A DNA stretch of 64,000 nucleotides from Syntrophorhabdaceae bacterium (lineage in GTDB: Bacteria; Desulfobacterota; Syntrophorhabdia; Syntrophorhabdales; Syntrophorhabdaceae): positions 608,001 to 672,000 of the forward strand of contig OY762209.1 in the NCBI GenBank assembly GCA_963665295.1, given 5' to 3'. A model generated the notes under the pieces. It saw nothing but the letters and a program-made list of their open reading frames with translations, was not told the DNA's origin and ran no database searches. Below are positions 6,269 through 64,000 of the stretch, one piece after another. The translations under genes and the position numbers were made by a program. Numbering within the stretch: the stretch's first letter is position 1; each line of letters opens with the position of its first letter.

Positions 6269-6316
6269 AATGTGCCCTTTTCTGAGGATCGGAAAAAACA
6301 CAAAGGAGGAAACTTT

Positions 6317-7171: not shown

Positions 7172-7175
7172 ATAG

Positions 7176-7874
7176 ATGGAACTGATTCTTGAGGGTGTAA
7201 AGAAGGCATTTTTCCTTCTCTTCACCCTCGACCCGGAAGTGCTGCGCATTACCCTTCTTTCCCTTGAGGTCTCGGGGGTCGCGACCTTGCTGAGCCTCAT
7301 AATAGGGGTGCCTTTGGGGGCAATGATCGGCCTTTCCAATTTTCCCGGAAAACGCCTGACCGTGGGCCTCATCAACACGGGTATGGGATTGCCCCCTGTG
7401 GTGGTCGGCCTCTTTGTTACCATATTCCTCTGGCGAAGCGGCCCTCTCGGGTTTTTGGGCATGCTCTTCACCCCCTCCGCCATGATCCTCGCCCAGGCGG
7501 TCATCGCCACCCCCATCGTCATGGGCATTACCGTGGCCGCCATGCAGCAGTTACCGAGGGACTTGAGGCTCCAGGTACTCTCCCTCGGAGCGAGCAAGCT
7601 CCAGATGTTCCTCACGCTCCTCAAGGAGGCGCGTCTTTCCCTTCTCGCCGCGGTCATGGCAGGCTTCGGCGGCGTGATCTCCGAAATAGGCGCGTCCATC
7701 ATGGTGGGCGGCAACATAAAAGGATATACCAGGGTCCTCACTACTGCGACGGTTATGGAAACGAGCAAGGGAAACTTCGATGTGGCCATCGCCCTCAGCA
7801 TTATCCTCCTCGTCCTCGCATACTGTATCAACCTCATACTGACCCACGTGCAACAGAGGGAGCGGCCGCGATGA
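7176..7874 (+). CDS. tupB: Tungstate ABC transporter permease
   Basis: Hydrophobic; MGLPPVVVGL, GGNIKGYTRVLTTA. Confidence 0.9.
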   Translation: MELILEGVKKAFFLLFTLDPEVLRITLLSLEVSGVATLLSLIIGVPLGAMIGLSNFPGKRLTVGLINTGMGLPPVVVGLFVTIFLWRSGPLGFLGMLFTPSAMILAQAVIATPIVMGITVAAMQQLPRDLRLQVLSLGASKLQMFLTLLKEARLSLLAAVMAGFGGVISEIGASIMVGGNIKGYTRVLTTATVMETSKGNFDVAIALSIILLVLAYCINLILTHVQQRERPR

Positions 7875-8959
7875 CCTCCGTACCCATACTCGACGTAAAG
7901 GGGGTCAAGGTCGTCCTCGCGGGAATACGCGTTCTCGACATCCCGTCCCTCTCCCTTGCAGAAAGAGAGGTACTTTCCCTCATAGGGCCCAACGGCGCGG
8001 GGAAATCGACCCTTCTCAAGGCCTTAAGCTCCCTCATCAGGATCAGCGCGGGCGCGATCCTGTTCCATGGTCTCGAAGTAGGCTCCGACTGCCCCCTGCC
8101 CCAGTACAGGAAGCGGGTTACCATGGTCTTCCAGGACCCCCTCCTCTTCGACACCACCGTCTTCGGAAACGTGGCGGCAGGCCTCCGGTTCCGGGGCATC
8201 AGGGGCCGGGAGATGGAGACCGCCGTTGCCGAGGCCATGAATCTTTTCGGCATCGACCACCTCGCGGGCCGGGCGGCGAGAAAGATATCAGGCGGAGAGG
8301 CCCAGAGGGTGAGCCTTGCGAGGGCCTTCGCCACCAAACCGGAGGTCCTCCTCCTCGACGAACCCTTTTCCGCCCTCGACCCCCCCACACGGGAAACGCT
8401 CGTCACGGACCTCGAATCCGTGCTGCGCCTCTCCAACATCACCGCGGTTTTCGCGACCCATGACCGGACAGAGGCCCTGCGCCTCTCTCACAGGATCGCC
8501 GTCATGCACGAAGGGCGCATCCTTCAGATAGGCTCCCCCCACGAGATCATGAACTATCCCATCGACCCCTTCGTCGCGTCCTTCGTCGGCGTGGACACCT
8601 TTGTAAGCTGTCTGGTCGCTTCGGTCGGGCAGAGCACCTTCACCGCAACAGTGGGCGACCTCAGGATCGAGGCCCCGGGAGGGCACAAAGTGGGCGACAG
8701 GCTTTTCCTCTGCATCCGCCCCGAGGATGTAATCCTTCGCGCAGCGAACGGGAGCGCTCCGGGCGACCCCAACACCTTCCGCTGCACAGTCCGGAAGGTC
8801 ACCTCCATGGGCCCCTACCACAAGGTCCTGGTGGACTGCGGATTCCCCCTCACCGCCTACGTGACCCGCCCCCACGCCCAGGACCTGGCCCTGCAGGAAG
8901 GCCAACCCCTCACCGCAACCATCCCCCCCACCGCCATCCACGTAGTAAAAGAAGGGTAA
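7871..8959 (+). CDS. tupC: Tungstate ABC transporter ATPase with TOBE domain
   Basis: Walker A GPNGAGKS, ISGGEAQR, LLLDEP; ATGA overlap with tupB. Confidence 0.9.
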   Translation: MTSVPILDVKGVKVVLAGIRVLDIPSLSLAEREVLSLIGPNGAGKSTLLKALSSLIRISAGAILFHGLEVGSDCPLPQYRKRVTMVFQDPLLFDTTVFGNVAAGLRFRGIRGREMETAVAEAMNLFGIDHLAGRAARKISGGEAQRVSLARAFATKPEVLLLDEPFSALDPPTRETLVTDLESVLRLSNITAVFATHDRTEALRLSHRIAVMHEGRILQIGSPHEIMNYPIDPFVASFVGVDTFVSCLVASVGQSTFTATVGDLRIEAPGGHKVGDRLFLCIRPEDVILRAANGSAPGDPNTFRCTVRKVTSMGPYHKVLVDCGFPLTAYVTRPHAQDLALQEGQPLTATIPPTAIHVVKEG

Positions 8960-8981
8960 GCTGTTGATAAAATAAGAGCGT

Positions 8982-9641
8982 CACTACCAGAGGGAATGCA
9001 GGTCCGTTCTTGGTTTCCGGTCTGAATAGGCCTGTCTATGGAAGTATCTGAATTGAAGCATGGAACAGTGCAATGTTTGCCCCCGGCGACCTTTGTTCTT
9101 CTTAATGAAATCAATTGGAGCCGGGCGGAATGGATGGAAGATACCGGGAGGCACTACCAGAGGGAATGCAGGTCCGTTCTTGGTTTCCGGTCTGAATAGG
9201 CCTGTCTATGGAAGTATCTGAATTGAAGCATGGAACAGTGCAATGTTTGCCCCCGGCGACCTTTGTTCTTCTTAATGAAATCAATTGGAGCCGGGCGGAA
9301 TGGATGGAAGATACCGGGAGGCACTACCAGAGGGAATGCAGGTCCGTTCTTGGTTTCCGGTCTGAATAGGCCTGTCTATGGAAGTATCTGAATTGAAGCA
9401 TGGAACAGTGCAATGTTTGCCCCCGGCGACCTTTGTTCTTCTTAATGAAATCAATTGGAGCCGGGCGGAATGGATGGAAGATACCGGGAGGCACTACCAG
9501 AGGGAATGCAGGTCCGTTCTTGGTTTCCGGTCTGAATAGGCCTGTCTATGGAAGTATCTGAATTGAAGCATGGAACAGTGCAATGTTTGCCCCCGGCGAC
9601 CTTTGTTCTTCTTAATGAAATCAATTGGAGCCGGGCGGAAT
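8982..9641. repeat. Perfect 170-bp tandem repeat, about 3.9 copies
   Basis: CACTACCAGAGGGAATGCAGG... recurs at 8982, 9152, 9322, 9492; copies appear identical; the fourth ends at 9641. Confidence 0.97.
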
Positions 9642-9779
9642 AGGCGGCCGCACGGGACGGACACTTCAGATAGGTCAGGCTGTGAAGGGAGGCTGGGCGT
9701 CGTCGTACTCAAGTACGACAGAGCACGCCTCCCTTTGCAGAGTGGCCTATATGGAGCGTTCGTTCTGTGCGGCCGCCTA
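9641..9779. repeat. 139-bp long imperfect palindrome (MITE/REP-like or structured RNA)
   Basis: Terminal TAGGCGGCCGCAC...GTGCGGCCGCCTA; inner arms CTGTGAAGGGAGGC/GCCTCCCTTTGCAG; apical GTCGTACT-CA-AGTACGAC. Confidence 0.85.
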
Positions 9780-9980
9780 AGGACTTGCATTACGGAAGCA
9801 ACCTGCCCCATTTTAGCCCCCAACCCGCATTGCAGTTCCCCCTGCCGGGGACGGGCAAAAGACCACAACAAAACCCTTGATAATCTTGACGTTCTGAAGT
9901 AACTTTTCAAGGAGGTGTCACGTGCCGGGAGGTGCGCCGACACAATTATCTTAGCCGAAAGCGCACGCAGGGGGTTATCG

Positions 9981-11690
9981 ATGTTATTCTCCAAGATGTT
10001 TATTCCTACAATGAAAGAAGTCCCGAAAGAGGCCGAGGTAGTGAGCCACAAACTCATGCTCCGGGCCGGTTTCATCCGGCGCCTCGCATCGGGCATCTAC
10101 ACATGGCTGCCCCTGGGGCTCAGGTCCTTGCGAAAGGTCGAGAAGATCATACGGGAAGAGATGGACAAAAAGGGCGCCCAGGAGATCCTCATGCCCCTGG
10201 TCCAGCCCAAGGAACTCTGGGTCGAAAGCACGCGTTGGGAAAAGTACGGAAAGGAACTTCTCAGGTTCGTGGACAGGAACAACCGGGACATCTGCCTTGC
10301 CCCGACCCACGAAGAGGTCGTCACCGACCTCGTGAGACGGGAGGTGCGTTCATACAAGGAGCTTCCCTTGATCCTCTACCAGATACAGACAAAATTCCGG
10401 GATGAAATAAGGCCGCGCTTCGGCGTCATGCGGGGCAGGGAATTCACCATGAAGGACGCCTACAGCTTCGATATGGACGAGTCAGGGGCCGAGGCGAGCT
10501 ATCTCAACATGTACGACGCGTACATGAACATCTTCAAGCGCTGCGGCTTCAGCTTCAGGGCAGTGGAAGCCGACACGGGCCAGATCGGAGGGAGCTTCTC
10601 CCACGAATTCATGGTCCTCGCCGATACGGGAGAGGACATCATCATCTCCTGCAGCAACTGCGGCTATGCGGCAAACCTCGAAAGGGCCGAGATAGGGTTC
10701 GTGGAGCGTGAAACCTCACGGAAAAAAGGCGCCTTCAAGAGGGTCGAAACCCCCGGGAAGAAGAAGATCGACGACGTGGCGCAATTCCTCGGCGTTGCCC
10801 CGGACAAACTCGTGAAGACCCTCATCTACAATACGGACCAGGGCGTCCTGGGAGTGCTCGTCAAGGGCGACAGGGAGGTAAACGAGACGAAGCTCAGAAA
10901 CCTCATGGGTCTCGAATACATGGAACTGGCGGATGAAGAGACCATAGAGAAGGTCACGGGCGGTCCCCTCGGCTTCTCCGGGCCCATCGGCCTCAAGATC
11001 CCCCTCGTAGCGGATATGGACATCCTCTTCATGGAAGACTTCGTGGCAGGCGGAAACGAGAGGGACGTGCACGTAGTGGAGGTGAACGTGGAAGACTTCG
11101 CCGTGAAGGGCTTTTACGACCTCAAGACCGCCCAGCCGGGTGACCTCTGCCCGCGGTGCCGCGATAAGCACACTGCCACAAAGGGCATCGAGGTGGGCCA
11201 CATATTCAAACTGGGCCTCAAATACAGCAAGGCCATGAACGCCACCTTCCTCGACAACGGCGGGAAAGAACAATACATGGTAATGGGCTGTTACGGCATC
11301 GGCGTAAGCAGGACCGTGGCCGCGGCAATCGAGCAGGGACATGACGAGAACGGCATGGTCCTCCCCATCGCCATCGCCCCCTTCGAGGTAGACGTCCTGC
11401 CCGTGAACACATCCCATGCCGAGAGCATGGAACTGGCGAACCAGGTGTACAAAGCGCTCCTTGACAAGGGGATCGATGTGATCCTCGACGACAGGGACGA
11501 GAGGACGGGGGTCAAATTCAAGGACTGCGACCTCATAGGCATACCTGTCCGCGTCACCATAGGGGAACGGAACTTGAAGGACGGTTACGTGGAGATAAAA
11601 CTCCGGCGTGAAAAAGAGTCGGAGAGGGTAAAGAAGGAAGACGTAATAGAAAGGATTATTGCCCATGTTGAAGAGCTTAAACGCGTGTGA
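9981..11690 (+). CDS. proS: Proline--tRNA ligase (bacterial type with INS editing domain)
   Basis: SHKLMLRAG, LAPTHEE, FRDEIRPRFGVMRGREF, GIEVGHIF, MGCYGIG. Confidence 0.97.
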   Translation: MLFSKMFIPTMKEVPKEAEVVSHKLMLRAGFIRRLASGIYTWLPLGLRSLRKVEKIIREEMDKKGAQEILMPLVQPKELWVESTRWEKYGKELLRFVDRNNRDICLAPTHEEVVTDLVRREVRSYKELPLILYQIQTKFRDEIRPRFGVMRGREFTMKDAYSFDMDESGAEASYLNMYDAYMNIFKRCGFSFRAVEADTGQIGGSFSHEFMVLADTGEDIIISCSNCGYAANLERAEIGFVERETSRKKGAFKRVETPGKKKIDDVAQFLGVAPDKLVKTLIYNTDQGVLGVLVKGDREVNETKLRNLMGLEYMELADEETIEKVTGGPLGFSGPIGLKIPLVADMDILFMEDFVAGGNERDVHVVEVNVEDFAVKGFYDLKTAQPGDLCPRCRDKHTATKGIEVGHIFKLGLKYSKAMNATFLDNGGKEQYMVMGCYGIGVSRTVAAAIEQGHDENGMVLPIAIAPFEVDVLPVNTSHAESMELANQVYKALLDKGIDVILDDRDERTGVKFKDCDLIGIPVRVTIGERNLKDGYVEIKLRREKESERVKKEDVIERIIAHVEELKRV

Positions 11691-12867
11691 CCTCACCCCG
11701 GCGGAGGAGATAAAAGGCAGGATAGACCGGCTCAAGGGCAGAATGGCAAAAGAGGGTATCTCTTTTGCGGTCATCCTCCAGAACGTGGACCTCTTTTATT
11801 TCACCGGCACCCTGCAAAAAGGGGTGCTTGTCGTGGCCCTCGACGAAGATCCCCTCTTTTTCGTGGAAAAGAGCATGGTAAGGGCCCGCATCGAAACACC
11901 CCTCGACATTATCCCCATCAAAAAGGACAAGGACGTAAAGGAGGTCCTCGCGGCAAAAGGGCTCCTTAAGGGAGCATGCGGCATGGAGTTCGACGTCTTG
12001 CCCGTTCAAGTCTACGAGCGGTGGAAAAATATTCTCGGTCACGACACGTTCAAGGACCTTTCGTCCCTGGTCCGGGACGTACGCCTCGTCAAGAGCCCCT
12101 TTGAGATCGACCAGTTGCGAAAGTCAGGCGAAATCATCTCGAAGGTCTTCACCAAGGCCCGGGAGGTGGTGAGAGAGAACGCCCGGGAAGTTGACATAGC
12201 GGCGGTTCTCGAAGCGGAAGGGAAGATATACGGCCACCAGGGTTTCTTGAGGATGCGCGGACTCAACCAGGAGATGATGAACTGTTATGTGACCCACGGC
12301 CCGTCCGCAACCTTCCCTTCAGGAGCGGATGTCCCCATATCGGGAGTAGGTGTGACCCACGCTATCGGACAGGGGCCTTCCATCAACAGGGTCGTCAAGG
12401 GTGTTCCCCTCCTCATCGATTACGGTGGAGGATATAACGGCTATATCACGGACGAAACGCGGGTTTTCGTGGTGGGAGACCTTAAGGAAACCTTTAAGAC
12501 CGCCTACGCAACAGCGCGGGAGATCATAGAGGACGCCACTGTCTTCGGAAAGGAAGGAGTGGATGCCACGGAGCTATTCAACCGGGCGGCCCGGGTGGTG
12601 GAAAAAGAGAAGCTGTCGGACTATTTCATGGGACACGGCGAAGGAAAGGTGGCTTTCATAGGGCACGGCCTCGGCCTCGAGATCAACGAACTTCCCGTGA
12701 TCACCCCCAGGCACCATATCACCCTGGAAGAGGGCATGGTCTTTGCCTTTGAGCCCAAATTCATCTTCCCCGGTGAAGGCGCGGTGGGGATCGAGGTGGA
12801 CTATGTGGTGAGGAAAGACCGCCTGGAGCGGATAAACGATTTTCCTATCGACATAGTGTGGCTCTGA
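11665..12867 (+). CDS. Xaa-Pro aminopeptidase (M24 family)
   Basis: Creatinase-like N-domain, RLVKSPFEI, GYITDETR, GHGLGLE, FEPK, GIE. Confidence 0.88.
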   Translation: MLKSLNACDLTPAEEIKGRIDRLKGRMAKEGISFAVILQNVDLFYFTGTLQKGVLVVALDEDPLFFVEKSMVRARIETPLDIIPIKKDKDVKEVLAAKGLLKGACGMEFDVLPVQVYERWKNILGHDTFKDLSSLVRDVRLVKSPFEIDQLRKSGEIISKVFTKAREVVRENAREVDIAAVLEAEGKIYGHQGFLRMRGLNQEMMNCYVTHGPSATFPSGADVPISGVGVTHAIGQGPSINRVVKGVPLLIDYGGGYNGYITDETRVFVVGDLKETFKTAYATAREIIEDATVFGKEGVDATELFNRAARVVEKEKLSDYFMGHGEGKVAFIGHGLGLEINELPVITPRHHITLEEGMVFAFEPKFIFPGEGAVGIEVDYVVRKDRLERINDFPIDIVWL

Positions 12868-52111: not shown

Positions 52112-53257
52112 TCACTCCTGACTCTGACTTCTGACTTCTGACTCCTGACTGTTCTTCTTAATCGCGTCTGCCCTCGCATGGGCGACCTGGCAGAAATATT
52201 CCACCGGCGCATCCATCTCCCCCGTCTCCAGCCAGGAATGGGCGGGACACCAGAGGCACATGTTTGTCAGGGCGCATTTACGACAGGTTTCGCGGAACTC
52301 GCGGCGCGACGAGCGCTTATCCCGCACCTTGGAGACAAGCTGCTCCCATGCCTCGCGGAGCGTCCCCCGGCGCAGATCGTACATGGTTTCCGGCGCCCAC
52401 AGGGAAGAACAGAGGCGGAACCTGCCGTCGTAACCGACGTTGAAACTCCCCGTCCCCGCCCCGCAATGGAAAAGGTGGTCGCAGCCACGACGGGTGAAAC
52501 CCGCATCGATAAGATCGTCGCACCCGGCCCGCAAAGCGCTGATGCGCCTTTCGTCCGCCCCCTCCAGGGCAACGATCTCCTCGGGCGTGAGGCGTTCAGC
52601 CCGGATCTCTGCGTTGCGCCCTTCATTCCGGTCAAAGCGCAGATGCAACTGGGGGTCAAAGCGGAAATAGTCCTTCGTGCGAGGGCGGCAGAAGGCGGCA
52701 ATAGCAGGCATTTCGTGGAAGTTGGATCGCATGGCCATGGCCTTCAGGCGAACCTTCACGTCGCTCTTCAGCAGCCGGTTGAGACCCTTTGTAAAAGCGG
52801 CAAAGGACCCGGGCCGGCGGGTAACACGCTCGTAAATTTCCTGAGACGCGCCATAGACAGTGACTTCCATATCCCGAGGCGGGTATTTCCTGAACAGGGC
52901 GATATGCTCGTCCCTCAGGAGCGTCGCGTTTGTAAAGACTGAAACGAGGAGGCCCTTGCGCTTGAGATTGAGGTAAATCTCCGGGAAGTCCTCGCGCAGG
53001 AGGGGCTCTCCGCCGGAAATGAGGACCCACATCGCGCCAAGGGCAACCGCCTGATCGGCAATACCGCTGATCTCCGGCAGAGACAGCTCCGTTGACTGGG
53101 CTTCCCTGTCATTGACGGGAAGATTGATATAACAGTGGCGGCAATTATTGTTGCAGCGCGCCGTAATCTCCAGGTCAAAGGAAAGGACGGCGTGACGCTC
53201 CTTGAGTCTATTCCAAAGGGGGAGGTCCTGGATTTCCTTTGCTGCAAAGGGGCGCAT
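52112..53257 (-). CDS. Radical SAM/SPASM peptide maturase 3
   Basis: CNNNCRHC, SGGEPLLR, CGAG...C, CRKC..TNMCLWC. Confidence 0.9.
   Translation of the reverse strand: MRPFAAKEIQDLPLWNRLKERHAVLSFDLEITARCNNNCRHCYINLPVNDREAQSTELSLPEISGIADQAVALGAMWVLISGGEPLLREDFPEIYLNLKRKGLLVSVFTNATLLRDEHIALFRKYPPRDMEVTVYGASQEIYERVTRRPGSFAAFTKGLNRLLKSDVKVRLKAMAMRSNFHEMPAIAAFCRPRTKDYFRFDPQLHLRFDRNEGRNAEIRAERLTPEEIVALEGADERRISALRAGCDDLIDAGFTRRGCDHLFHCGAGTGSFNVGYDGRFRLCSSLWAPETMYDLRRGTLREAWEQLVSKVRDKRSSRREFRETCRKCALTNMCLWCPAHSWLETGEMDAPVEYFCQVAHARADAIKKNSQESEVRSQSQE
52116..52150. repeat. Short heptamer tandem repeat (CTGACTY)n at the 3' end of rSAM 3
   Basis: ctgactctgacttctgacttctgactcctgact. Confidence 0.7.
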
Positions 53258-54214
53258 TTATACTACCGGGCCGGTCGTCATGCCGCTGCGCGCCAGAATA
53301 TCACGCGTCTTGCCGATAAGGGCCTTATCGAGTCCCGCACCGCGATAACGGGCCCGCACCCGCAGGTTCACACTGTGCCAGCCTGCCCCTTGAGGACATC
53401 TGTCAGGGCTCCGGACCATGGTTACCTGCGCCGCAGGGGTGCGCGCAGCGTTCAGAGTCATGGCCAGCGTCCATTCCATAACCGGTCCTTCCTGCTGCAA
53501 GGACGCGTTTATATTGAATTGATCCGGAGGAAAAACACGGCAAAGGTCGTGAGTCTGCCCCGGCTTCAAGGGCACCCTCACCTCGTAACGCGTCGAAGGG
53601 TGCAAAGCCTTTAGCCAAAGCCGTGCGACGGCTTGATATATGCCTGTGCCCTGAACCCGCTCCAGTCCCTTGATCGATCGTGCCCGGACGGCCCGGTTCC
53701 ACCATTCCCGAAACGATATCCGCACTTTTGCACAGCCTTTGAGCGGTTTCCGCGCGGTCGGCGTTGGCTTGCCTTCCCGTTCAATCTTTGTAACGACGCC
53801 GAGGACATCGTTTCCGCGGGTGGGGCCGTCATTGCCGTTATCGCTTCTATCAGGTCGGGTGATAATATAATGTCCTCCCCTGTCCGTACCCTTCGCGATA
53901 GTCCTATGCCCGAAGAGCCGTCCGTCACGGCGGGTAACGGCAATATCACCGACCTTAATATCATCGATAAGGCGCGATTCAATGTGGAGCATATCGCCGG
54001 AACGGATGCAGGGGTACATGCATGATCCCCGGGCAAGAAATGTCGCCTTGCCGCAGTCCGCCAACACACGTCCTATTTCCAATGACTCGACGATCAGGCT
54101 TCCCTGCAACCTTTCTCCCCCCATACCTCCTGTCTTTTCGGGAAGTCCGCATGACAGGGCACATTCCCTTTTGTCTTTTGACCGGAACGGACAGGAATAA
54201 AGATTACAGTCCAT
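53258..54214 (-). CDS. S24/S26 peptidase-like protein with C-terminal GNAT-like motif
   Basis: GSCMYP..RSGD, IKVGDI, HR, TRPD, DVLGVV; C-terminal LRVRARYRGAGL. Confidence 0.75.
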   Translation of the reverse strand: MDCNLYSCPFRSKDKRECALSCGLPEKTGGMGGERLQGSLIVESLEIGRVLADCGKATFLARGSCMYPCIRSGDMLHIESRLIDDIKVGDIAVTRRDGRLFGHRTIAKGTDRGGHYIITRPDRSDNGNDGPTRGNDVLGVVTKIEREGKPTPTARKPLKGCAKVRISFREWWNRAVRARSIKGLERVQGTGIYQAVARLWLKALHPSTRYEVRVPLKPGQTHDLCRVFPPDQFNINASLQQEGPVMEWTLAMTLNAARTPAAQVTMVRSPDRCPQGAGWHSVNLRVRARYRGAGLDKALIGKTRDILARSGMTTGPVV

Positions 54215-54258
54215 CTCTTTGTGGTGAATTTTCAGACAATGTGATAGAGGCCCTCATG

Positions 54259-54567
54259 TCACGTTGCGCGAACGACAACCATCTTCCTTTGCGCCAGCTC
54301 CCTTATCAGTCCCATCACGTCCTTCTCAATTTCTTCCAGAGACGCGGCATACTCCAGCCCTAATTCCGACGTCACAGCCCGGAGGGTCTTTTGTCCGTCA
54401 AGGCGCATCCAGATCGCCTTGCCTGTCTCGTTCAACGTGTAAAGCTCATCGTCGGCATCGCCGATACCGGCGACGAGGGGAATAATGATCACTTCGTCCT
54501 CGATCACACGGGCAACTATATCTTCAGACGGCATATAAATGCCGTCGAGTTCGATTTCCGTGTTCAT
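54259..54567 (-). CDS. PqqD family RiPP recognition element
   Basis: IVARVIEDEVIIIP, LYTLNETGKAIW..LDG, DV..LI.EL. Confidence 0.9.
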   Translation of the reverse strand: MNTEIELDGIYMPSEDIVARVIEDEVIIIPLVAGIGDADDELYTLNETGKAIWMRLDGQKTLRAVTSELGLEYAASLEEIEKDVMGLIRELAQRKMVVVRAT

Positions 54568-54652
54568 AACGCCTTTTCGTGCTCCTTCCGCACTTTCATT
54601 TTCAGTCTGCGTATCTTTCCCGTTCGTAAGGGTCACCGGGGATAGGCAGCGC

Positions 54653-54838
54653 CTAACTCTCTATCTGATCGCTGCACAGATTGGTGCAACCAGTGTCGGA
54701 ATGGCAATTAAGGAAATGGGATAGAAAATTGCTGGTTGACCCGCCACCCTTACAGGCTCCCAGCACCGCCTCTTCCGGCCTGCCCCGCACAAGGACAATC
54801 AGTTCCGGTTTGCAGTATGACTTCTTGGTCTGTTGCAT
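54653..54838 (-). CDS. RiPP precursor peptide 2 (61 aa)
   Basis: MQQTKKSYCKPELIVLVRGRPEEAVLGACKGGGSTSNFLSHFLNCHSDTGCTNLCSDQIES; leader shared with precursor 1. Confidence 0.85.
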   Translation of the reverse strand: MQQTKKSYCKPELIVLVRGRPEEAVLGACKGGGSTSNFLSHFLNCHSDTGCTNLCSDQIES

Positions 54839-54908
54839 TCTTGTCTCTCTTTTCAAACACCCATATTTGTGTTTCGAATACTACCAGATAAACGACCTTT
54901 TGGCAATA

Positions 54909-56069
54909 TTAACGGCAAAACCCTTCGATACGCTCCCGCCATCCCGTTACCTCCCATGCATTCTCGTTCATTGTGATCAGCCCCAGATATCGCGCCTGGC
55001 CGTGGGCCACCTCGCACAGATATTCCACCGGAGTGTCCAGTGTGCCATGTTCCATCCAGGATTTGGCGGGGCATTGTCCGCAGAGCCCTTTGAGGAAGCA
55101 CCGGCCGCAGCGGCGCAGGTAATCCGGGTTGGCGGATCTGATTTCCCGCAAAGGGGGGAATGATTTCTCCAGGGCGGATTTCAAGGTCGTTTCGCGCAGA
55201 TCAACCGCCATATCCGGGGCGCGCAGGCCCATGCACATCTGCGCCTTCCCGTAAGCGTCGATGCAGGCCCCGTGTCCGGCGCCACAGGAGAAGAGTTTGT
55301 CTCCCGGCGGTCCCATGAACCTTCCGCAGAACTGCTTCATCTCTTTCAGATAAAGGGGGTTGCGTGACACCATGCCTACGGTCTCCTCGGGTGTTGCCCG
55401 GAGCTTTATGATGCGCGCGTTTTTCGCCGGATCGTCCCGCCGGGAACGGAGGTCGAAATTCATGGAGTAATCGGGCATTTTATCCATCCGGGGAATCGTC
55501 CGCGCCCATGATTCAAATGCTGTCAGGTCGTTTTTCAGCAAGGGCAGCAGGGCCGCCTTCACAATGAAAGGGACCTGATGTTTCTCCAGAAGTCCGACGC
55601 CGCGGCGAAACTCCGCGAAGGCGCCCTTCCTGCCCACGGCCCGATCATAGGACTCCGGCCGCATTCCATAAACCGTGACCTCCACCACCCGCCCCGGCGG
55701 CATTTTCGCCAGCAGCGTAGCCAGTTCCGGGGTGATAAGGCAGGCATTGGTGAAGAGAATGACCCGTATCCCCCGACGGCGGGTGAATTCATACAACTCT
55801 GCAAAATCTTCACGCAGGAGGGGCTCGCCGCCGGTGAGCCGGACAGTCAGGCACCCGAGGTTGGCGGCCTGGGCCATGACATCCTTGACAAAATCCGTAC
55901 TCATTTCCCGGTTGCGGGCGTCGGCGTCGCCTTCCGGAAGATTGATGCAGCAGTGGATGCAGTTGTTATTGCACCTCTCCGTCAACTCCATGTCGAGTTG
56001 GCCCAAAAGTGGCCGCGTGCCGTGTCCGATAGTGAATTCATGGGGCTTTAACGTTCTTATATAAGTCAT
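54909..56069 (-). CDS. Radical SAM/SPASM peptide maturase 2
   Basis: GGGGAG RBS before MTYIR; CNNNCIHC, TGGEPLLR, CGAG...C, CGRC..KGLCGQC. Confidence 0.9.
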   Translation of the reverse strand: MTYIRTLKPHEFTIGHGTRPLLGQLDMELTERCNNNCIHCCINLPEGDADARNREMSTDFVKDVMAQAANLGCLTVRLTGGEPLLREDFAELYEFTRRRGIRVILFTNACLITPELATLLAKMPPGRVVEVTVYGMRPESYDRAVGRKGAFAEFRRGVGLLEKHQVPFIVKAALLPLLKNDLTAFESWARTIPRMDKMPDYSMNFDLRSRRDDPAKNARIIKLRATPEETVGMVSRNPLYLKEMKQFCGRFMGPPGDKLFSCGAGHGACIDAYGKAQMCMGLRAPDMAVDLRETTLKSALEKSFPPLREIRSANPDYLRRCGRCFLKGLCGQCPAKSWMEHGTLDTPVEYLCEVAHGQARYLGLITMNENAWEVTGWRERIEGFCR

Positions 56070-56238
56070 GTATACTCCCCCATCATCAACGCCGCCCACG
56101 CCTGGTTGATCCCCCCTTGCACACCGCGGCAGGTCCGGGACCCCTCCGCCTGCGTTGAGCCTGTCACACAGTTCCCATGGTTCGACTTCGCCCGCCGTGG
56201 GCGGGCCAAAACCCATAAGGGCCGGGAAGCAAAGGGGG

Positions 56239-56412
56239 CTAGCTTGATGTGATCTCGTTGCACCCGCCCCAACCTTGTTCATCGCAATAGGATAGGAATT
56301 CCCAGGGGCCGGCTGCAAAACTTGATTTACACGCGCTTAAGACAGCCTCCTCCGGCTTGTTCCGCACCAGGACGATCAGTTGTCTCACCCACGCCTTCTT
56401 GCTTTCTGTCAT
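56239..56412 (-). CDS. RiPP precursor peptide 1 (57 aa)
   Basis: GGGGAGG RBS; MTESKKAWVRQLIVLVRNKPEEAVLSACKSSFAAGPWEFLSYCDEQGWGGCNEITSS. Confidence 0.85.
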   Translation of the reverse strand: MTESKKAWVRQLIVLVRNKPEEAVLSACKSSFAAGPWEFLSYCDEQGWGGCNEITSS

Positions 56413-56429
56413 CTTTCCATCCTCCCCTA

Positions 56430-58436
56430 TCAAGGACCGGGTTTGCGTTCCAATTGTTGAGCCCCTGAACCTATAAACCTCTTTATCTCCCCCGCTATCT
56501 CTCCGCTCTTGTCGAACCGCATCACGTAACATGGCGCTTCATTGCTCAGCTCTCCGATCAGATCGAGGGTCTTCTCCCACCAGTCGGCAGTGACGAAGGG
56601 TTTGATGACGCAGGCGAGCAGACGGCGCACGACCTCCTTGCGGTCGGTGAGGGGCGTGATGGTATTCGCCTTCGCCTTTTCGATAAAACAGATGGCCCGA
56701 AGCGGCGCATCATTGCCGGAGACGACGGGCACGTCGCCGTGGCTCCAGGTGCCGTATATCCGCCAGCCGTCGCCCGTGCGCCGGACGATGTTCCGGTCGT
56801 CGCATAGGATTTCGACATTCATCTCACCCCTTGTCCCAGCCTCGATCAGCATATTGGTCGCAGTGGATTTCCCCGCCTCGGAGTGGCCTACAAAGAGCAC
56901 GCCCGCGCCGTTCAGGATTGCCCCTGCCGAGTGGAGGTAGCAGCCCCGGCGATCTGCCAGCAGGCGGGCGATGAGTATCTGATCGGAGGGGAACATGGTC
57001 AGGGAATGGAGGCCGCCCTTCCGCCAGGTATCGCTCCGGATATGGTCGTTGTAGATACGGGCGCGGGTATGATCGGCGTTGAAGGTCGCCACGCGGTGCA
57101 GCGACGGGTCGTCCGCCTCGGGGGAGATGCCGAGATAGATGTAGGAGCCGTTCTGCCGGGAGATTGCCCAGGGCGGTTTGCGGTAGAGTACCCTACCCAG
57201 ATCCTTGCCCGTGAGATCGGGAAGTTCGAAGTGGTGGCGGATCGTAACCGTGTCCGCTCCGGGTCCGTCGGCGCGAAAGGAGTCAAACTTCAGGTGAAAG
57301 GTCTGATCGTCTATGGTGAGGTCGCTGTCCACCCGGATCGTGATCCCGGCAATCCGGTAATAGCGGCGGTGGTCGGCCCGCCACTCTTCCCTGAACCCTT
57401 CGTCCTCCTGCGCCACATCGCATAAATGTTCCACGGGTGCCGAAAAGCGGCCATGCTCCAGCCAGCCGTACACGGGGCACCAGCGGCAGTCTTTGCGCTT
57501 GTCACAGGGGCCGCAATTTTCCCCGTACTCCGCGCCGCCGAGCACCCTGTCCGCCAGGGTGGGGATGAACGTCTCCCACGCTTCCCGGACCGTCCCCTTG
57601 CGCAGGTCATAGCGCATGGCGGGATCTTTGAGGAAGGAGCAGAAGGTCATGCCGCCGTAAGGATCAATATGGAAATCCCTCTTTCCGGCAATGCAGCGGG
57701 CAAAGAGGCGGTCGTCGCCGTCAGTCTGTCCGCACAGGCGGGCGTGCGCCTCTTCGCAGGAGAGATCGGGCGGGTCCAGTTCCACTACATCCCGGGGGTC
57801 GAGGCGCTGACGGACGATCTCGGCGTTGCGCTCCGGATCACGGCACGAGGAAAGATACAACCACGGGGCACCGACGCGCCAATGTTTGCTCAGAGACTTC
57901 GCTAGATCCTGCATCTTTTCCCATTCATGCCGGTTGTCCCGCATGGGGATCAACTGGATGATGAAGCCCGCCCCCGCCTCCTTAAGATAACGGAGGCCTT
58001 CCATGACCTTTTCGAAGCCGCCGGGGTGGCGGGTCACATGGTCATAGGTTTCTCTTGTCGCGCCATAAAGGGCAATCATCTTACTCCCCTTGCGTTTGAG
58101 GAGACGGGCTATTTCCGGCGTGATGAGGGTTCCGTTCGTATTAAGGGTATAGGAGACGGCTTTCCCGGTCACGTACTCGAATATTTCAGGAAAGTCGGGG
58201 CGCACCATGGGTTCGCCGCCCGAGATGGACCAGCGGCGCGTGCCCAGGGCACGGGCCTGATCGACCACGTTCTTGATCTCGTCAAAAGTGAATTCCTCTT
58301 CTTGTTCTTCGGGATGTTCGGGCAGCCACAGCCAACAATGACGGCAGCGGTTATTGCACCGGTAAGTCAGGTCGATCCGGCCTTCCAGAGGCAATCGCAC
58401 ATCGTGCAACTTCTCGTACGTGAGCAGACTTTTCAT
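56430..58436 (-). CDS. Radical SAM/SPASM maturase 1 fused to HPr-kinase-like P-loop domain
   Basis: CNNRCRHC, SGGEP, CGPC..RKDCRWC; C-terminal LHSAG, GHSEAGKST, LCDDR. Confidence 0.88.
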   Translation of the reverse strand: MKSLLTYEKLHDVRLPLEGRIDLTYRCNNRCRHCWLWLPEHPEEQEEEFTFDEIKNVVDQARALGTRRWSISGGEPMVRPDFPEIFEYVTGKAVSYTLNTNGTLITPEIARLLKRKGSKMIALYGATRETYDHVTRHPGGFEKVMEGLRYLKEAGAGFIIQLIPMRDNRHEWEKMQDLAKSLSKHWRVGAPWLYLSSCRDPERNAEIVRQRLDPRDVVELDPPDLSCEEAHARLCGQTDGDDRLFARCIAGKRDFHIDPYGGMTFCSFLKDPAMRYDLRKGTVREAWETFIPTLADRVLGGAEYGENCGPCDKRKDCRWCPVYGWLEHGRFSAPVEHLCDVAQEDEGFREEWRADHRRYYRIAGITIRVDSDLTIDDQTFHLKFDSFRADGPGADTVTIRHHFELPDLTGKDLGRVLYRKPPWAISRQNGSYIYLGISPEADDPSLHRVATFNADHTRARIYNDHIRSDTWRKGGLHSLTMFPSDQILIARLLADRRGCYLHSAGAILNGAGVLFVGHSEAGKSTATNMLIEAGTRGEMNVEILCDDRNIVRRTGDGWRIYGTWSHGDVPVVSGNDAPLRAICFIEKAKANTITPLTDRKEVVRRLLACVIKPFVTADWWEKTLDLIGELSNEAPCYVMRFDKSGEIAGEIKRFIGSGAQQLERKPGP

Positions 58437-58539: not shown

Positions 58540-58719
58540 CTACCTCCGCCGGATTTCCTCTATCTTTTCCGCCGGCAATCCCAGCCATTCCAGGAAACTC
58601 TGATGGCCGTCCGGGTTCTCGGCCTCGAACAGCCCGTGCCAATTCTCCATCGCCTTATCGTCAAGACCGATCGCCCGGAACCGCCTGACCCATTCGTCCA
58701 CCGTTACCATCTGATTCAT
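58540..58719 (-). CDS. Small protein resembling a MerR-family C-terminal effector domain
   Basis: W...FRAIGL...AM..WH..FE..NPDGHQSFLEWLGL; no HTH; GGGAG RBS. Confidence 0.7.
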   Translation of the reverse strand: MNQMVTVDEWVRRFRAIGLDDKAMENWHGLFEAENPDGHQSFLEWLGLPAEKIEEIRRR

Positions 58720-58768
58720 CGTCTTCTCCCTTGTCTCGAATGATTTTACCATAGCTATGATAGAGATA

Positions 58769-61216: not shown

Positions 61217-63163
61217 TTACGTCCTAATTTCCCAATCATCCGGCACAAGCGCTTTGCCATCGGTCCACCGTTCTATCGTGGCTGCCATGTAATGCTTATC
61301 ATCTGAGAAATATGCGTGCTCCAGTACCAGAAATTGCAGGGAGTTTTCTTTGGCGAAACGATACAAAAAATCAAAATACCTTTGCAGGTTTGTAACCTCT
61401 TTTGATTTTTTTAATACTATCTCCTTTTGGGGTTTTCCTGGGTCTGCCGGGTAATATGGTCGGCTTAGCTGATCCAAAATGATAAATCCTGGCACGGGCT
61501 TGGAAATAAGACCAAAATGTTTATGCAAGGCAAGAATCACTGCCAGGTGAAGGCTGAGATAATTCTCGTCGGAGCCAATGTCGCGCATTGGGATTCTGCG
61601 TGTTTCTCCCAGAATACCCGATTCAAGTTTTCTGGGATCAAAAAAGACCGGTCTTCCGTCATATGTCTTGTCAAACGGAAGTTCCTTTAAGATGCTCGTG
61701 GCGGCTTGGGATAATATTACTGATGTGTCCTGTAACCGGTCGAGTTTGGCAGATACATCCAGTTCAGACTCTAATGACGCAATTTCCTCGCGGAGAGCAG
61801 ATAGGCCTTCCTTTGGAAATATTTGTTCGCTCGCTTCAACGCTGGTCTCCAAGAACAGGCTCACCCTTCCGACGATCCTCTGACGTCTCTGATCCAAATC
61901 TACATGCATTTGTATTTGCTTTTCTTCTTGAATTAGCGAGGCTTTACGCTTTCTAAGCTCTGCGAGTTTCTCTGCCACCTTTTCTTTTTGGTTTTCGAGA
62001 TCCAATAAATAATTTCCCAGCTTTGGCCGGTCGCTTCTTACGTGCTCCAATTCAGCTCCGACCTTTCGTAACGCCGTCCTTACTTCATTTGCCAAGTCAT
62101 GGCCTACGGACAATGGCTGCTGGCACAGGGGGCATTTATGATCATCCGTTAAGGGTATCAAATCTACTGCCTTTAACCGCAACTGTTGAAGGTTGGTAGT
62201 ACTTTCATACTCGTCGGTCTGATTCAAAAAAAATTTTGCAGATGAGATTCTGCTCTTAATGCGTCGCAGTTCTGATATAACAGCGTTTTCTTTTTCAGTA
62301 ATCTCATCCAGTTCATCACTACCTTCAAAAGGCGACTTCTCCGTCGTCCACTCGGCCACTGAGCGCAATGCCTCAGAGACTTCCGCAATAGAGACCTCGT
62401 CGGCTGATGGAATGGTACCGTCATATAGTCCAACTTGAGAGGCTTCAGCTAAAAGATTAAGAGATCGTGATACTTCCTCATTCTTAAGGTTCTGAACGCG
62501 CGCATATCGTCTTTCGGCTTCCGCCAGGGCACGCCGCAACCTCGCGAGGCGATTCTCTTTGGCGACGGTTTCTTCATCGGTAATTCCGAGAAAATAGGGC
62601 AACGTGTCGATAATGCTTTGCCGTCTTTGATCGTTTGCTCCACGAAAAAGAGTTGTCTTACTGATAATAACATCATCATCGAGTATCAAATACGGGATTA
62701 AGTTGCGTGCCGAAATTCTTGCTCGGGGCCTCGTTCCCGAATCGAATGTTTCCGATTGGACATCTCCAAGACCTATTATCTGTTCAAATTTCCGCACAGC
62801 CCCGTCCCGATTTGTTATTGTGTGTAAATCGCTAGAAGTAGGTGGTATGTTAATCTTCTCCCCAACGAGAAAGAAAAAATCCTCACTTTTGGTTTTGTTC
62901 GGGTCTGGGGATTTACGACAGACCAGAAAGCGAGTCTGTTGCTGGACCCAGAGTAAACCAAACCATGAACAGGCATTCCTGATTCTATCGGGGATATGGC
63001 ATTTTGATGAGCCCATGACAAAATCAAATATTTCGGAAATGGCTGATTTGCCTGTGTTGGAATCTCCCGTAATGATATTGACTTTCCCTGGCTTTAGTTT
63101 TATTGTTCTCTGCGATTTGTCATGATCCCATAGAATTATCTGTTCAAGATTCCAATATTTCAT
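61217..63163 (-). CDS. lmuB: SMC-like ABC ATPase (DUF3732; Lamassu LmuB / ABC-3C ATPase)
   Basis: Walker A GDSNTGKS, LPYFLG, coiled coils, CPLC zinc hook, GSDENY, ILDQLSRPYY, LEHA. Confidence 0.85.
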   Translation of the reverse strand: MKYWNLEQIILWDHDKSQRTIKLKPGKVNIITGDSNTGKSAISEIFDFVMGSSKCHIPDRIRNACSWFGLLWVQQQTRFLVCRKSPDPNKTKSEDFFFLVGEKINIPPTSSDLHTITNRDGAVRKFEQIIGLGDVQSETFDSGTRPRARISARNLIPYLILDDDVIISKTTLFRGANDQRRQSIIDTLPYFLGITDEETVAKENRLARLRRALAEAERRYARVQNLKNEEVSRSLNLLAEASQVGLYDGTIPSADEVSIAEVSEALRSVAEWTTEKSPFEGSDELDEITEKENAVISELRRIKSRISSAKFFLNQTDEYESTTNLQQLRLKAVDLIPLTDDHKCPLCQQPLSVGHDLANEVRTALRKVGAELEHVRSDRPKLGNYLLDLENQKEKVAEKLAELRKRKASLIQEEKQIQMHVDLDQRRQRIVGRVSLFLETSVEASEQIFPKEGLSALREEIASLESELDVSAKLDRLQDTSVILSQAATSILKELPFDKTYDGRPVFFDPRKLESGILGETRRIPMRDIGSDENYLSLHLAVILALHKHFGLISKPVPGFIILDQLSRPYYPADPGKPQKEIVLKKSKEVTNLQRYFDFLYRFAKENSLQFLVLEHAYFSDDKHYMAATIERWTDGKALVPDDWEIRT

Positions 63164-63645
63164 ACACGCATCCCTAAACAATGGAGAGAGATTTGCATTG
63201 AACCGACCTGCCCAAACCATCTGCCTAAACGCTCGGCCATCTGCAGCGAGGTTTTTAATTGGCTGTTATCTGCAATGACTTTGCTCTTATTTTTTAATTT
63301 TCCGGTAACAACTATCTTATGTTCTGGCCCAAGCCCTATCATTCCGTTCGACAGGGCAAGATGGAGGCCGGATAACGAAAGCCGTTTTGCATCTTGAACG
63401 GAAGTGGCCAGTTCAGTAGGAACCCATGCATTACGATTGAGCCACTCCACCAATCCTGTCTTTGTATTCGTACCGTGTAGGGTCTTGGCATACAGACTGG
63501 AAGATACGATCGGTAAAGGTAGATAGACAAGGGGATACTCACAGCCAGCATCGTCTTCTTTCACATAGCCTTCAACAAATTGCCAAATAATTGAGGCTAC
63601 ATAGGCCGGGTTGGTGGCGGCGAAAATATCAAGCGATTTCTTCAT
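63160..63645 (-). CDS. ABC-three-component middle component (LmuC-like)
   Basis: NPAY...LVYLPLPIV...AERLGRWF...LGM; ATGA overlap with the ATPase. Confidence 0.75.
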   Translation of the reverse strand: MKKSLDIFAATNPAYVASIIWQFVEGYVKEDDAGCEYPLVYLPLPIVSSSLYAKTLHGTNTKTGLVEWLNRNAWVPTELATSVQDAKRLSLSGLHLALSNGMIGLGPEHKIVVTGKLKNKSKVIADNSQLKTSLQMAERLGRWFGQVGSMQISLHCLGMRV

Positions 63646-64000
63646 CGCTATTGTCTCCCTGTTGTTTAAGCCGGGCCTGATAATCTGGATGCCATCCAAC
63701 TCTCAATTCATCGGCAAGTTGCTGATAGATGCCGCTTGTATAGAACGGTTGATTCCAGCTCTTTCGAGGAGGAGGTATTTCCACAGAGGCATTTTGATGG
63801 GACCAGTCGAGCAGCTTTCGGCCCACTTCTTTCTTCGTACCTTCAGGCGAACGGGCATGATCATGCCGCATGGGACCGTGATAGTCTCTCCAGGCTTCTA
63901 CCAGTCTCTCGTCATATTCCGTCAAGGTCGTTGCGAGAGATATGTCGTATTCAAGCCACGCTCGGCGCTGGTTAATAGCCCGATATCTTGCCAAAGCAGC
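63629..64000 (-). CDS. ABC-3C effector C-terminal domain (LmuA-like; 5' part outside window)
   Basis: YRA..QR..W, YDERLVEAW, GIYQQLADELRVGWHPDY; overlaps the middle component. Confidence 0.75.
   Translation of the reverse strand, partial: AALARYRAINQRRAWLEYDISLATTLTEYDERLVEAWRDYHGPMRHDHARSPEGTKKEVGRKLLDWSHQNASVEIPPPRKSWNQPFYTSGIYQQLADELRVGWHPDYQARLKQQGDNSDEEIA

Follow-up and report, generated by a model that had tools for sequence, protein, structure and literature searches.

In the window (the whole stretch of DNA analysed here, 64,000 nucleotides long), a radical SAM/SPASM protein, which we call rSAM1, ends in a kinase-like domain and lies in a cluster with two precursor peptides. From the sequence, the predicted role of the last 317 residues of rSAM1 is to phosphorylate a precursor at the expense of ATP, most likely on the side-chain hydroxyl of its C-terminal Ser, a prediction to which we give about an even chance. 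Genes and motifs are located in Table 1.

Table 1. Features of the cluster, in window coordinates
Feature	Position	Strand	Basis or remark
rSAM3, radical SAM/SPASM	52112..53257	(-)	kept in related loci
S24/S26-like peptidase-like protein, long form	53258..54214	(-)	TIGR02228, Peptidase_S24, BLASTP
PqqD-family recognition element, discrete	54259..54636	(-)	Pfam PqqD E 2e-13; weak matches to lasso PqqD models
Precursor peptide 2, 61 aa, ends CSDQIES	54653..54838	(-)	leader HMM E 2.8e-16
rSAM2, radical SAM/SPASM, start at the ATG following GGGGGAG	54909..56069	(-)	adjoins kinase in related loci too
Precursor peptide 1, 57 aa, ends CNEITSS	56239..56412	(-)	leader HMM E 4e-14
rSAM1 ORF, 668 aa, radical SAM/SPASM protein plus kinase-like domain	56430-58436	(-)	
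Predicted ScmC-family, HprK/PEPCK-fold P-loop domain of rSAM1 (residues 352-668 and stop codon)	56430..57383	(-)	NCBIfam, AF2, VIA-align
CDDR, rSAM1 residues 545-548, Asp546/Asp547	56793..56804	(-)	aligns with HprK Asp-Asp
P-loop GHSEAGKST, rSAM1 residues 517-525, Lys523	56862..56888	(-)	aligns with HprK P-loop
LHSAG, rSAM1 residues 501-505, His502	56922..56936	(-)	aligns with His-Gly before HprK P-loop
Radical SAM/SPASM half of rSAM1	57384..58436	(-)	Pfam Radical_SAM, NCBIfam rSAM/SPASM, motif positions

The first half of rSAM1 is matched by Pfam Radical_SAM over residues 23-178 (E 5.2e-23) and by NCBIfam rSAM/SPASM families up to about residue 333; CNNRCRHC occupies residues 27-34, and a SPASM-like Cys-rich motif residues 308-320. 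For the other half, the sequence-only reading had pointed to LHSAG, a Walker A motif GHSEAGKST and a DD motif in the C-terminal "third-plus" of the protein, over a span (56430-57360) that corresponds to residues 359-668. All three motifs are present; the size was underestimated, the domain making up 47% of the protein. When 32 homologues are aligned, no variation is seen at H151, S152, G166, H167, S168, G171, K172, T174, C194, D195, D196 and R197 (domain numbering), and G166 and K172 of the P-loop remain unchanged even in 56 sequences with identity down to 28%. Given this invariance across homologue alignments, LHSAG, GHSEAGKST and CDDR do not match by chance.

According to its AF2 model (pLDDT 89.5), the C-terminal domain has an HPr-kinase/PEPCK fold. 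Catalytic domains of HprK/P match residues 144-314 of the domain model with Z scores of 11.0-11.2 and an rmsd of 2.9-3.3 Å over 127-132 residues (VIA-align), and PEPCK matches the whole domain model with a Z score up to 12.4 and an rmsd of about 6 Å (VIA-align). For the first 144 residues an HprK counterpart is absent, and the match to PEPCK, at that same rmsd of about 6 Å, is a loose one. Elsewhere in the same genome lie a bona fide hprK (348 bits) and a distinct lasso-type cluster, which has an HprK-like gene of its own. His, P-loop and Asp-Asp of the domain fall in register with those of this canonical HprK, at an hhalign probability of only 21%, and the family profile aligns with the lasso-cluster HprK-like protein over 98 columns (hhalign 94.8%, E 4.9e-8). 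By these probabilities, the domain is closer to the latter protein than to the former. The sequence-only reading had called the domain HPr-kinase-like, and both the fold and the in-register motifs (structure comparison, hhalign) agree with it.

Scores against curated families were all sub-threshold. The best was obtained with ScmC (NCBIfam TIGR04249; E 1.1e-6, 28.2 bits for an equivalog cut-off of 125), followed by HprK_rel_B (E 6.4e-4, below the NCBIfam cut-off), hpr-ser (TIGR00679; E 0.019, 14.2 bits for a cut-off of 240) and Hpr_kinase_C (PF07475; 13.7 bits for a cut-off of 33.3). Among 56 family members, ScmC matched 54, HprK_rel_B 49, hpr-ser 27 and HprK_rel_A 17, all below cut-off, including the best ScmC E-value of the set (1.1e-13). 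A precomputed match to PF27840, which bears the name ScmC in the Atlas, is found on 119 of the 120 homologues listed (57-88% identity). Given 28.2 bits against a cut-off of 125, the domain would be a relative of ScmC rather than ScmC proper. Matches were at the level of the P-loop only when the domain sequence was searched against the PDB, and in a profile search P-loops of ABC transporters ranked above HprK (E 2.1e-4), so that placing the domain takes more than its sequence.

A domain scoring below every curated threshold speaks, on sequence grounds, against a peptide kinase. It might instead bind a nucleotide without phosphorylating the peptide, as an ATP-dependent clamp or chaperone, as a regulator of the radical SAM half, or as a phosphorylase-type enzyme, and the lack of an HprK counterpart for its N-terminal 144 residues (PEPCK alone being matched there, loosely) is compatible with such roles. 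We find this improbable: His, the P-loop Lys and Thr and Asp-Asp vary little or not at all, and the clusters without radical SAM enzymes described below would be left with no modifying enzyme except the NTP-transferase. Moreover, the pairing with NTP_transf_5 mirrors the phosphorylate-then-decorate pathways described in the consulted part of PMC8498205.

The genes that surround the kinase are conserved with it. A cassette of kinase, rSAM2, PqqD, S24/S26-like peptidase and rSAM3 is common to 79 related genome loci, which carry two or three rSAM/SPASM enzymes each, and in 67 of these 79 the kinase is fused to rSAM1. A scan of about 185,000 species genomes found the family in 270 of them, and it comprises more than a thousand protein clusters; its hosts are bacteria and archaea, methanogens included, from many phyla. 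The peptidase-like protein of the window matches TIGR02228, the archaeal-type signal peptidase I (1.1e-7), Peptidase_S24 (0.014) and a short-form homologue (BLASTP 1e-7), and has a Cys in place of the usual nucleophile Ser (GSCMYP). It was considered whether its C-terminal half could be the GNAT protein encoded by a separate gene in some loci; no similarity was seen, and the idea was dropped. Of 148 sources, which include many short contigs, 65 have the S24/S26-like peptidase, 46 have NTP_transf_5 and 39 have an ABC exporter. Neither an NTP-transferase nor an exporter was found near the window cluster, and the sole PF14907 match of the genome lies about 2.2 Mb away from it. Lasso cyclase and B2 peptidase are absent from the window cluster as well as from the conserved cassette. 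The gene set of the family is that of the partners of characterised HprK-like peptide kinases, as these are presented in the portions of PMC8498205 and PMC13381572 that were consulted.

We then consider the substrate. The ATG of precursor 1 follows GGGGAGGA, and both precursors end in Ser (...NEITSS and ...SDQIES), as had been read earlier. Leaders of the family contain the lasso-type W/YxxPxL motif, with a consensus ...PEExVLxxCK after which no Ser is conserved. The core follows the pattern C...C-x2-3-C-x5-S; conservation is limited to its Cys residues and its last Ser/Thr, no other core Ser/Thr position being kept in the family. Complete precursors of the genome set end in Ser or Thr in 110 cases out of 113 (Ser 105, Thr 5), for a background of 15% among 8,958 frames. 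By class of locus, this is the case for 148/151 precursors at fused loci and for 15/17 at loci combining a stand-alone kinase with radical SAM enzymes. A Cys at position -7, which defines the C-x5-S motif, is present in 102 of the 113 precursors. In a sample of 401 genomes of the phylum, the kinase was detected in 10 of the 11 other precursor-bearing genomes, sharing a contig with the precursors in 9 of these 10 and lying on a different contig in the tenth (G276). The eleventh (G400), where the kinase was not found, is 85% complete and has its precursors on a short contig. No kinase-free cluster with the same precursors was found in this 401-genome sample.

The kinase also occurs without radical SAM enzymes. 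In LPP-like clusters free of them, the kinase has full-length relatives at 31-39% identity, of which that of locus L085 is the closest (39% identity over 293 residues, E 1e-75); these clusters hold only peptidase, PqqD, kinase, NTP-transferase, exporter and precursor. Since such clusters keep the kinase, it is a peptide-directed enzyme in its own right rather than an accessory of the radical SAM enzymes. The metagenome scan used a 7-sequence subset of the distant stand-alone members, whose broad alignment is too variable. Precursors of the rSAM-free clusters have a homologous leader, and none of 9 ends in Ser or Thr (last residues G, G, F, D, N, Q, K, P and G). The C-x5-S motif was seen solely where radical SAM enzymes accompany the kinase. 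The terminal Ser therefore tracks the Cys-rich, radical SAM subfamily and not the kinase as such, and the expected co-occurrence of terminal Ser and kinase held for the loci with radical SAM enzymes (110/113) and failed for those without (0/9). The earlier inference of one bifunctional maturase that crosslinks the precursor and phosphorylates its terminal Ser is thus supported in part only.

These observations leave room for a peptide kinase acting on another residue, for example near the leader/core junction, with the terminal Ser/Thr serving some other purpose. In Bacillota, the clusters for linear polyphosphorylated peptides (LPP) have a kinase, LppK, that polyphosphorylates core residue Ser3, behind a FETxxS motif, according to the consulted part of PMC13381572. 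In the rSAM-free precursors, which lack a terminal Ser/Thr, a Ser/Thr is found 2-6 residues past the VL/FL of the leader; judged by eye, its position matches that of the invariant Cys-Lys in the window family. Being part of the radical SAM-associated C-x5-S motif, the terminal Ser could serve these enzymes instead, as an acceptor or anchor for the one acting on the Cys six residues upstream, or it could be recognised by the peptidase or the exporter. Nevertheless, the window family has no conserved Ser/Thr at the junction, where some precursors (that of L025 for instance) are devoid of any Ser/Thr before the first core Cys, and the terminal Ser/Thr is its sole conserved hydroxyl. Moreover, residues accepting a thioether are usually not limited to Ser and Thr. 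Phosphorylation of a different residue thus appears unlikely to us, if less so than a mere nucleotide-binding role. Because of the 0/9 score of the rSAM-free relatives, and because LppK targets Ser3, we consider the terminal Ser as the leading candidate site and nothing firmer, with a probability close to one half.

Could the phosphate be transient? The terminal Ser would then be eliminated to a dehydro residue, to which the Cys at -7 would add, giving a lanthionine-like ring at the C-terminus. Kinase-then-eliminate chemistry is established for lanthipeptide synthetases of classes II to IV, and the spacing is constant here, with Cys at -7 in 102/113 and Ser/Thr at -1 in 110/113. Yet gene clustering brought out no lyase- or cyclase-like gene recurring in the loci, the Cys residues already have the two or three rSAM/SPASM enzymes to account for them, and the presence of NTP_transf_5 in 46 sources points to a phosphate that stays in place as a handle. 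A transient phosphate is, to us, the most far-fetched of the readings discussed.

Coming back to a lasting phosphate on the terminal residue, maturation might proceed as follows. The leader would be held by the PqqD protein, while the two or three rSAM/SPASM enzymes would crosslink the core Cys, with about one enzyme for each. The kinase half of rSAM1 would phosphorylate the terminal Ser/Thr, and the S24/S26-like protein would remove the leader. Relatives equipped with NTP_transf_5 and an ABC exporter would further decorate the phosphate and export the product, in the pseudomycoidin manner. As there is no NTP-transferase or exporter near the window cluster, its own product would be crosslinked and simply phosphorylated. 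More broadly, and somewhat more tentatively than for the kinase itself, we propose a hybrid class, in which a module of LPP/paeninodin type captured two or three rSAM/SPASM enzymes, the kinase being fused to one of them. Products of this class would be thioether-crosslinked and carry a C-terminally phosphorylated Ser, with a decorated phosphate in many relatives.

Few peptide natural products are phosphorylated, and literature searches returned no report of this modification for radical-SAM-modified peptides. Among the papers that they listed, no study of the rSAM-kinase fusion family and no biochemical data for it were found. Searches combining HPr kinase, radical SAM and RiPP retrieved mentions of HPr kinase in lasso clusters only. 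Neither kinase nor phosphorylation is mentioned in the main text of PMC10288494, and PMC13692751 covers an unrelated archaeal rSAM family. If the prediction is right, this chemistry would be new for radical-SAM peptides, in a family that spans bacteria and methanogens of many phyla, and a mass increase of 80 Da would be expected on one defined residue, lost in the Ser-to-Ala and Lys523Ala variants. The family would also be a natural case of an HprK-like peptide kinase whose site of action has moved from close to the leader out to the end of the peptide.

Compared to HprK/P, the rSAM1 domain shares the fold of the catalytic domain, with His, P-loop and Asp-Asp in register, but its HMM scores are far under cut-off, its N-terminal half is different, and its context is a peptide natural-product cluster instead of a phosphotransferase system. 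Three other systems, so far kept apart, are linked by the family: the SCM cassette, paeninodin-type kinases and LPP.

The SynChlorMet (SCM) cassette supplies ScmC, the best-scoring curated family for the domain, and like the window and related loci it associates an ScmC-like protein with a PqqD relative and radical SAM/SPASM proteins; in the window, however, the ScmC-like domain is fused to a third rSAM/SPASM enzyme. No papers on SynChlorMet, or on ScmC with radical SAM, were found, so the ScmC family offers a name and not a function.

Kinases of the paeninodin/pseudomycoidin lasso systems act on the linear precursor, whose C-terminal Ser they recognise and phosphorylate, the rest of the peptide being of little importance, as stated in the consulted part of PMC8498205. 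They share with the window family the HprK superfamily, a discrete PqqD element, the W/YxxPxL leader and precursors ending in Ser, as well as the NTP-transferase partner in relatives of the window cluster. They differ in that the window cassette lacks both lasso cyclase and B2 peptidase, while its cores are Cys-rich and rSAM/SPASM enzymes are present, one of them fused to the kinase.

As for LPP clusters, their SpI-like peptidase, discrete recognition element and HprK-like kinase all have equivalents in the window cluster, and their NTP-transferase and MsbA-like exporter, missing near the window, are often present in relatives. The window family lacks FETxxS; around that place it has an invariant Cys-Lys, and its conserved Ser/Thr is the terminal one. 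LppK rejects Thr, according to the consulted part of PMC13381572, whereas about 9% of the termini of the window family are Thr. Finally, the window family adds two or three rSAM/SPASM enzymes to the LPP set, and the LPP paper (PMC13381572) makes no mention of radical SAM.

The compact gene set from rSAM1 to rSAM3 spans 52112-58436 on the minus strand of the window (see table). All motifs that the sequence-only reading had reported in the C-terminal part of rSAM1 were found within its last 317 residues (LHSAG at 501-505, GHSEAGKST at 517-525, CDDR at 545-548), as was the terminal Ser of both precursors. The small ORF directly upstream of rSAM1 gave no family match and has no counterpart among the 79 related genome loci. 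At 61217-64000, G+C falls to 46%; this stretch is possibly an acquired island, and among its ORFs is one of 667 aa whose P-loop reads GDSNTGKSA.

Features of the window and of the lasso-type locus L189 (G000:C1:378000-392000, window's own genome), each numbered within its own stretch
Feature	Position	Strand	Remarks
70-aa ORF	58540-58752	minus	70 aa
rSAM1	56430-58436	minus	668 aa
Precursor 1	56239-56412	minus	57 aa, C-terminus ...NEITSS
rSAM2	54909-56069	minus	
Precursor 2	54653-54838	minus	61 aa, C-terminus ...SDQIES
PqqD-family protein	54259-54636	minus	
S24/S26-like peptidase-like protein	53258-54214	minus	
rSAM3	52112-53257	minus	
L189 PqqD-like gene	7013-7318		
L189 lasso-cyclase homologue	7322-9289		655 aa
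L189 HprK-like protein	9706-10608		
L189 sulfotransferase-like protein	10605-11465		
L189 radical-SAM-like ORF	11494-12834		

A search limited to the C-terminal part of rSAM1 (hereafter the domain) matched 1395 proteins at E <= 0.001. Among the 120 matches listed (57-88% identical), 107 carried Radical_SAM and PF27840, 12 PF27840 only and 1 Radical_SAM only, PF27840 being 'ScmC' in the ESM Atlas look-up. With cluster representatives, 4125 clusters were matched at E <= 0.001, and these contain both fused proteins of ~650 aa and many stand-alone ones of ~300 aa. The His-Ser, the P-loop residues and the Cys-Asp-Asp-Arg are invariant in an alignment of 32 homologues, and the P-loop Gly and Lys remain so when the set is widened to 56 sequences, the most distant being 28% identical. 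On HMM scoring the isolated window domain reached no curated family threshold: ScmC (TIGR04249) gave an E value of 1.1e-6 and 28.2 bits for a cut-off of 125, and HprK-related kinase B (E 6.4e-4), the HPr(Ser) kinase model (E 0.019) and Pfam Hpr_kinase_C (E 0.045) were likewise below theirs. Over 56 family members, matches were obtained with ScmC in 54, HprK_rel_B in 49, hpr-ser in 27 and HprK_rel_A in 17.

HprK/P and PEP carboxykinase (PEPCK) have a common fold, and an AlphaFold2 model of the domain, built from the 32-sequence alignment (mean pLDDT 89.5), retrieved both with Foldseek, ATP-dependent PEPCKs at the top (E 1.7e-7), then HprK/P 1kkl_C (E 1.1e-4). With VIA-align, five HprK/P structures gave Z scores of 11.0-11.2 and rmsd of 2.9-3.3 Å over 127-132 residues, a match covering residues 144-314 of the model, whereas PEPCK reached Z 12.4 over the whole model, but with an rmsd of about 6 Å. 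The genome also encodes a bona fide HprK (348 bits to TIGR00679). Aligned with it, the family profile placed His, P-loop and Asp-Asp in register, but with a probability of only 21%. The proposal of an HPr-kinase-like domain fused to a radical SAM enzyme is borne out by both fold and motif register. Another HprK-like protein of the same genome, adjoining a lasso-cyclase homologue (NF033535, E 7.4e-19), a PqqD-like gene and a sulfotransferase-like gene, aligned with the profile over 98 columns with a probability of 94.8% (E 4.9e-8). Because of this difference in probability and of the lasso-cyclase neighbourhood, the domain is placed closer to those members of the HprK superfamily that occur in peptide clusters than to HprK/P proper. 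The lasso-type cluster L189 extends over about 7013-12834. In locus L190 (G000:C1:2278000-2292000), the minus strand at 5844-7297 carries a second HprK-like protein (277 aa) together with its partner, a sulfotransferase-like ORF that looks truncated (207 aa); none of the large ORFs nearby looked like a lasso gene.

In a species-genome scan, 270 genomes encode a relative, and 79 loci were retained. Their recurring order is rSAM1-kinase or kinase alone, rSAM2, PqqD, sometimes a peptidase, and rSAM3; the kinase is fused in 67, stand-alone without rSAM1 in 10, and present in both forms in 2. The remaining ORFs were clustered across 148 sources, which include many short contigs. Of these sources, 65 have an S24/S26-like peptidase (sometimes with GNAT), 46 a match to PF14907, an 'uncharacterised nucleotidyltransferase' (E 1e-35 to 1e-55), and 39 an ABC exporter. 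The window has neither the nucleotidyltransferase nor the exporter, and the only PF14907 gene of the genome lies about 2.2 Mb away. The peptidase-like protein of the window has a Cys at the S24/S26 nucleophile Ser position (GSCMYP), and no family match was found for its extra C-terminal half; in related loci this position is Cys in 12 long forms (about 320 aa) and Ser in 48 short forms (about 165 aa). Wzy-like O-antigen ligase and Wzc-like chain-length/tyrosine-kinase genes stand beside the cassette in 7 sources each (e.g. L062, L041, L045, L130). In G212:C172, G126:C25, G276:C182 and G304:C2 the kinase match comes in two pieces (profile about 7-88 and 92-296), the longer one holding one stop codon (TAG, TAA, TAA and TGA, respectively), so the gene may be split or interrupted in these four genomes.

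A census based on stop-to-stop frames, so that start codons are approximate, and on a leader profile built from a regular-expression seed identified 113 complete ORFs of precursor type, from 59 sources in the genome set. Their last residue is Ser in 105, Thr in 5 and another in 3, for a background of 15% Ser/Thr among 8,958 frames from the same loci. The consensus is KKxWxxPELxVLVRxxPEExVLxxCK ... C ... CxxCxxxxxS, with three invariant Cys; a Cys occupies position -7 in 102 of the 113, followed by five variable residues and the terminal one. The WxxPxL of this leader is the motif that lasso-type recognition elements bind, according to excerpts of PMC13381572. In a 401-genome sample of the phylum, strong matches to the precursors were obtained in 11 genomes beyond the window's own. 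The kinase is encoded in ten of these, in nine on the precursor contig and in one (G276) on another contig; the eleventh, 85% complete and with its precursors on a short contig, is uninformative. The 27 hit strings of this sample, some of them sub-strings of one ORF, end in Ser (23), Thr (3) or, for a fragment, Ile (1). A metagenome scan anchored on distant stand-alone kinase-family members returned mostly loci of the window type and added 63 unique precursors, ending in Ser (46), Thr (10) or another residue (7). Sorted by locus, unique precursors ending in Ser/Thr amounted to 148/151 with a fused kinase, 15/17 with a stand-alone kinase and rSAM, and 3/8 where no rSAM was seen, all three from one 2-kb contig whose kinase is 59% identical.

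Where rSAM1-kinase, rSAM2 and rSAM3 occur together, 119 of 151 precursors have three core Cys; where a stand-alone kinase accompanies rSAM2 and rSAM3, 10 of 17 have two. Core Cys number follows the number of rSAM/SPASM genes across the related loci L002-L162, and we therefore propose that the fused rSAM1 would be the enzyme handling the extra Cys. The constant parts are the kinase, rSAM2, rSAM3, the last Cys and the terminal Ser.

A distinct group of the metagenome scan, loci L085-L093, encodes a full-length homologue of the kinase (in L085, 39% identical over 293 residues, E 1e-75, and above the Pfam Hpr_kinase_C cut-off at 40.5 bits). BLAST with three rSAM queries found no radical SAM gene in these loci, nor did Pfam in 33 of the 47 ORFs of at least 110 aa from four 12-kb loci of the group, the other 14 being minus-strand frames overlapping scanned ORFs. 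Neighbours are NTP_transf_5, a sugar transferase, PqqD, an S24/S26-like peptidase and an ABC exporter. The precursors have the KxWxxPxL leader in common and Pro/Gly-rich cores, with no Cys in six of nine and one in three. Their C-terminal residues are G, G, F, D, N, Q, K and P, and the precursor of L137, where one rSAM is present, has G. The predicted co-occurrence of terminal Ser with the kinase thus held in fused loci and failed in L085-L093 and L137 (0/9 Ser/Thr): a terminal Ser is not a property of the whole kinase family, and goes with Cys-rich, rSAM-served cores as part of C-x5-S.

Peptide kinase is the best-supported function predicted for the ScmC-family domain, because of these rSAM-free relatives and of the NTP_transf_5 pairing. 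The relatives show that the family modifies peptides in its own right, since rSAM-free clusters offer no other candidate for this role except the nucleotidyltransferase. This also makes a non-kinase role of the domain quite improbable. The pairing mirrors the pseudomycoidin pathway, in which, according to excerpts of PMC8498205, the phosphate that a kinase has added to the terminal Ser is decorated by a nucleotidyltransferase. The residue acted on is less secure. Paeninodin-type kinases are described in the same source as reading the C-terminal Ser and little else, and in the window family the terminal Ser is the sole conserved hydroxyl of the core; with the 0/9 count on the other side, our confidence that the predicted kinase phosphorylates the terminal Ser/Thr is evenly balanced. 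Action at another site would agree with that count and with LppK, which targets core Ser3 (PMC13381572, in excerpt), but is unlikely given the single conserved hydroxyl. Phosphorylation of the terminal Ser followed by elimination, closing a ring, we consider very improbable.

HprK-like kinases acting on ribosomal peptides are already known (paeninodin, pseudomycoidin, LPP), and the ScmC domain and SCM cassette are already catalogued in Pfam and NCBIfam. New are the architecture, in which kinase and radical SAM/SPASM enzyme form one protein, and the product class that it implies; literature searches found no publication on either. Further additions are the LPP-like relatives that lack rSAM genes and whose precursors have no terminal Ser, and, within one genome, the comparison with a lasso-type cluster. 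The metagenome contigs L085, L089, L092 and L093 bear these LPP-like clusters amid sugar transferases, PEP-CTERM proteins and PilZ genes. Their gene set (NTP_transf_5, HprK-like kinase, PqqD, S24/S26-like peptidase, ABC exporter, precursor) is that reported for linear polyphosphorylated peptides, a family which PMC13381572 describes as Bacillota-restricted and in which, according to excerpts, the HprK-like LppK places several phosphates on core Ser3 and does not accept Ser3Thr; radical SAM enzymes are not mentioned in that paper.
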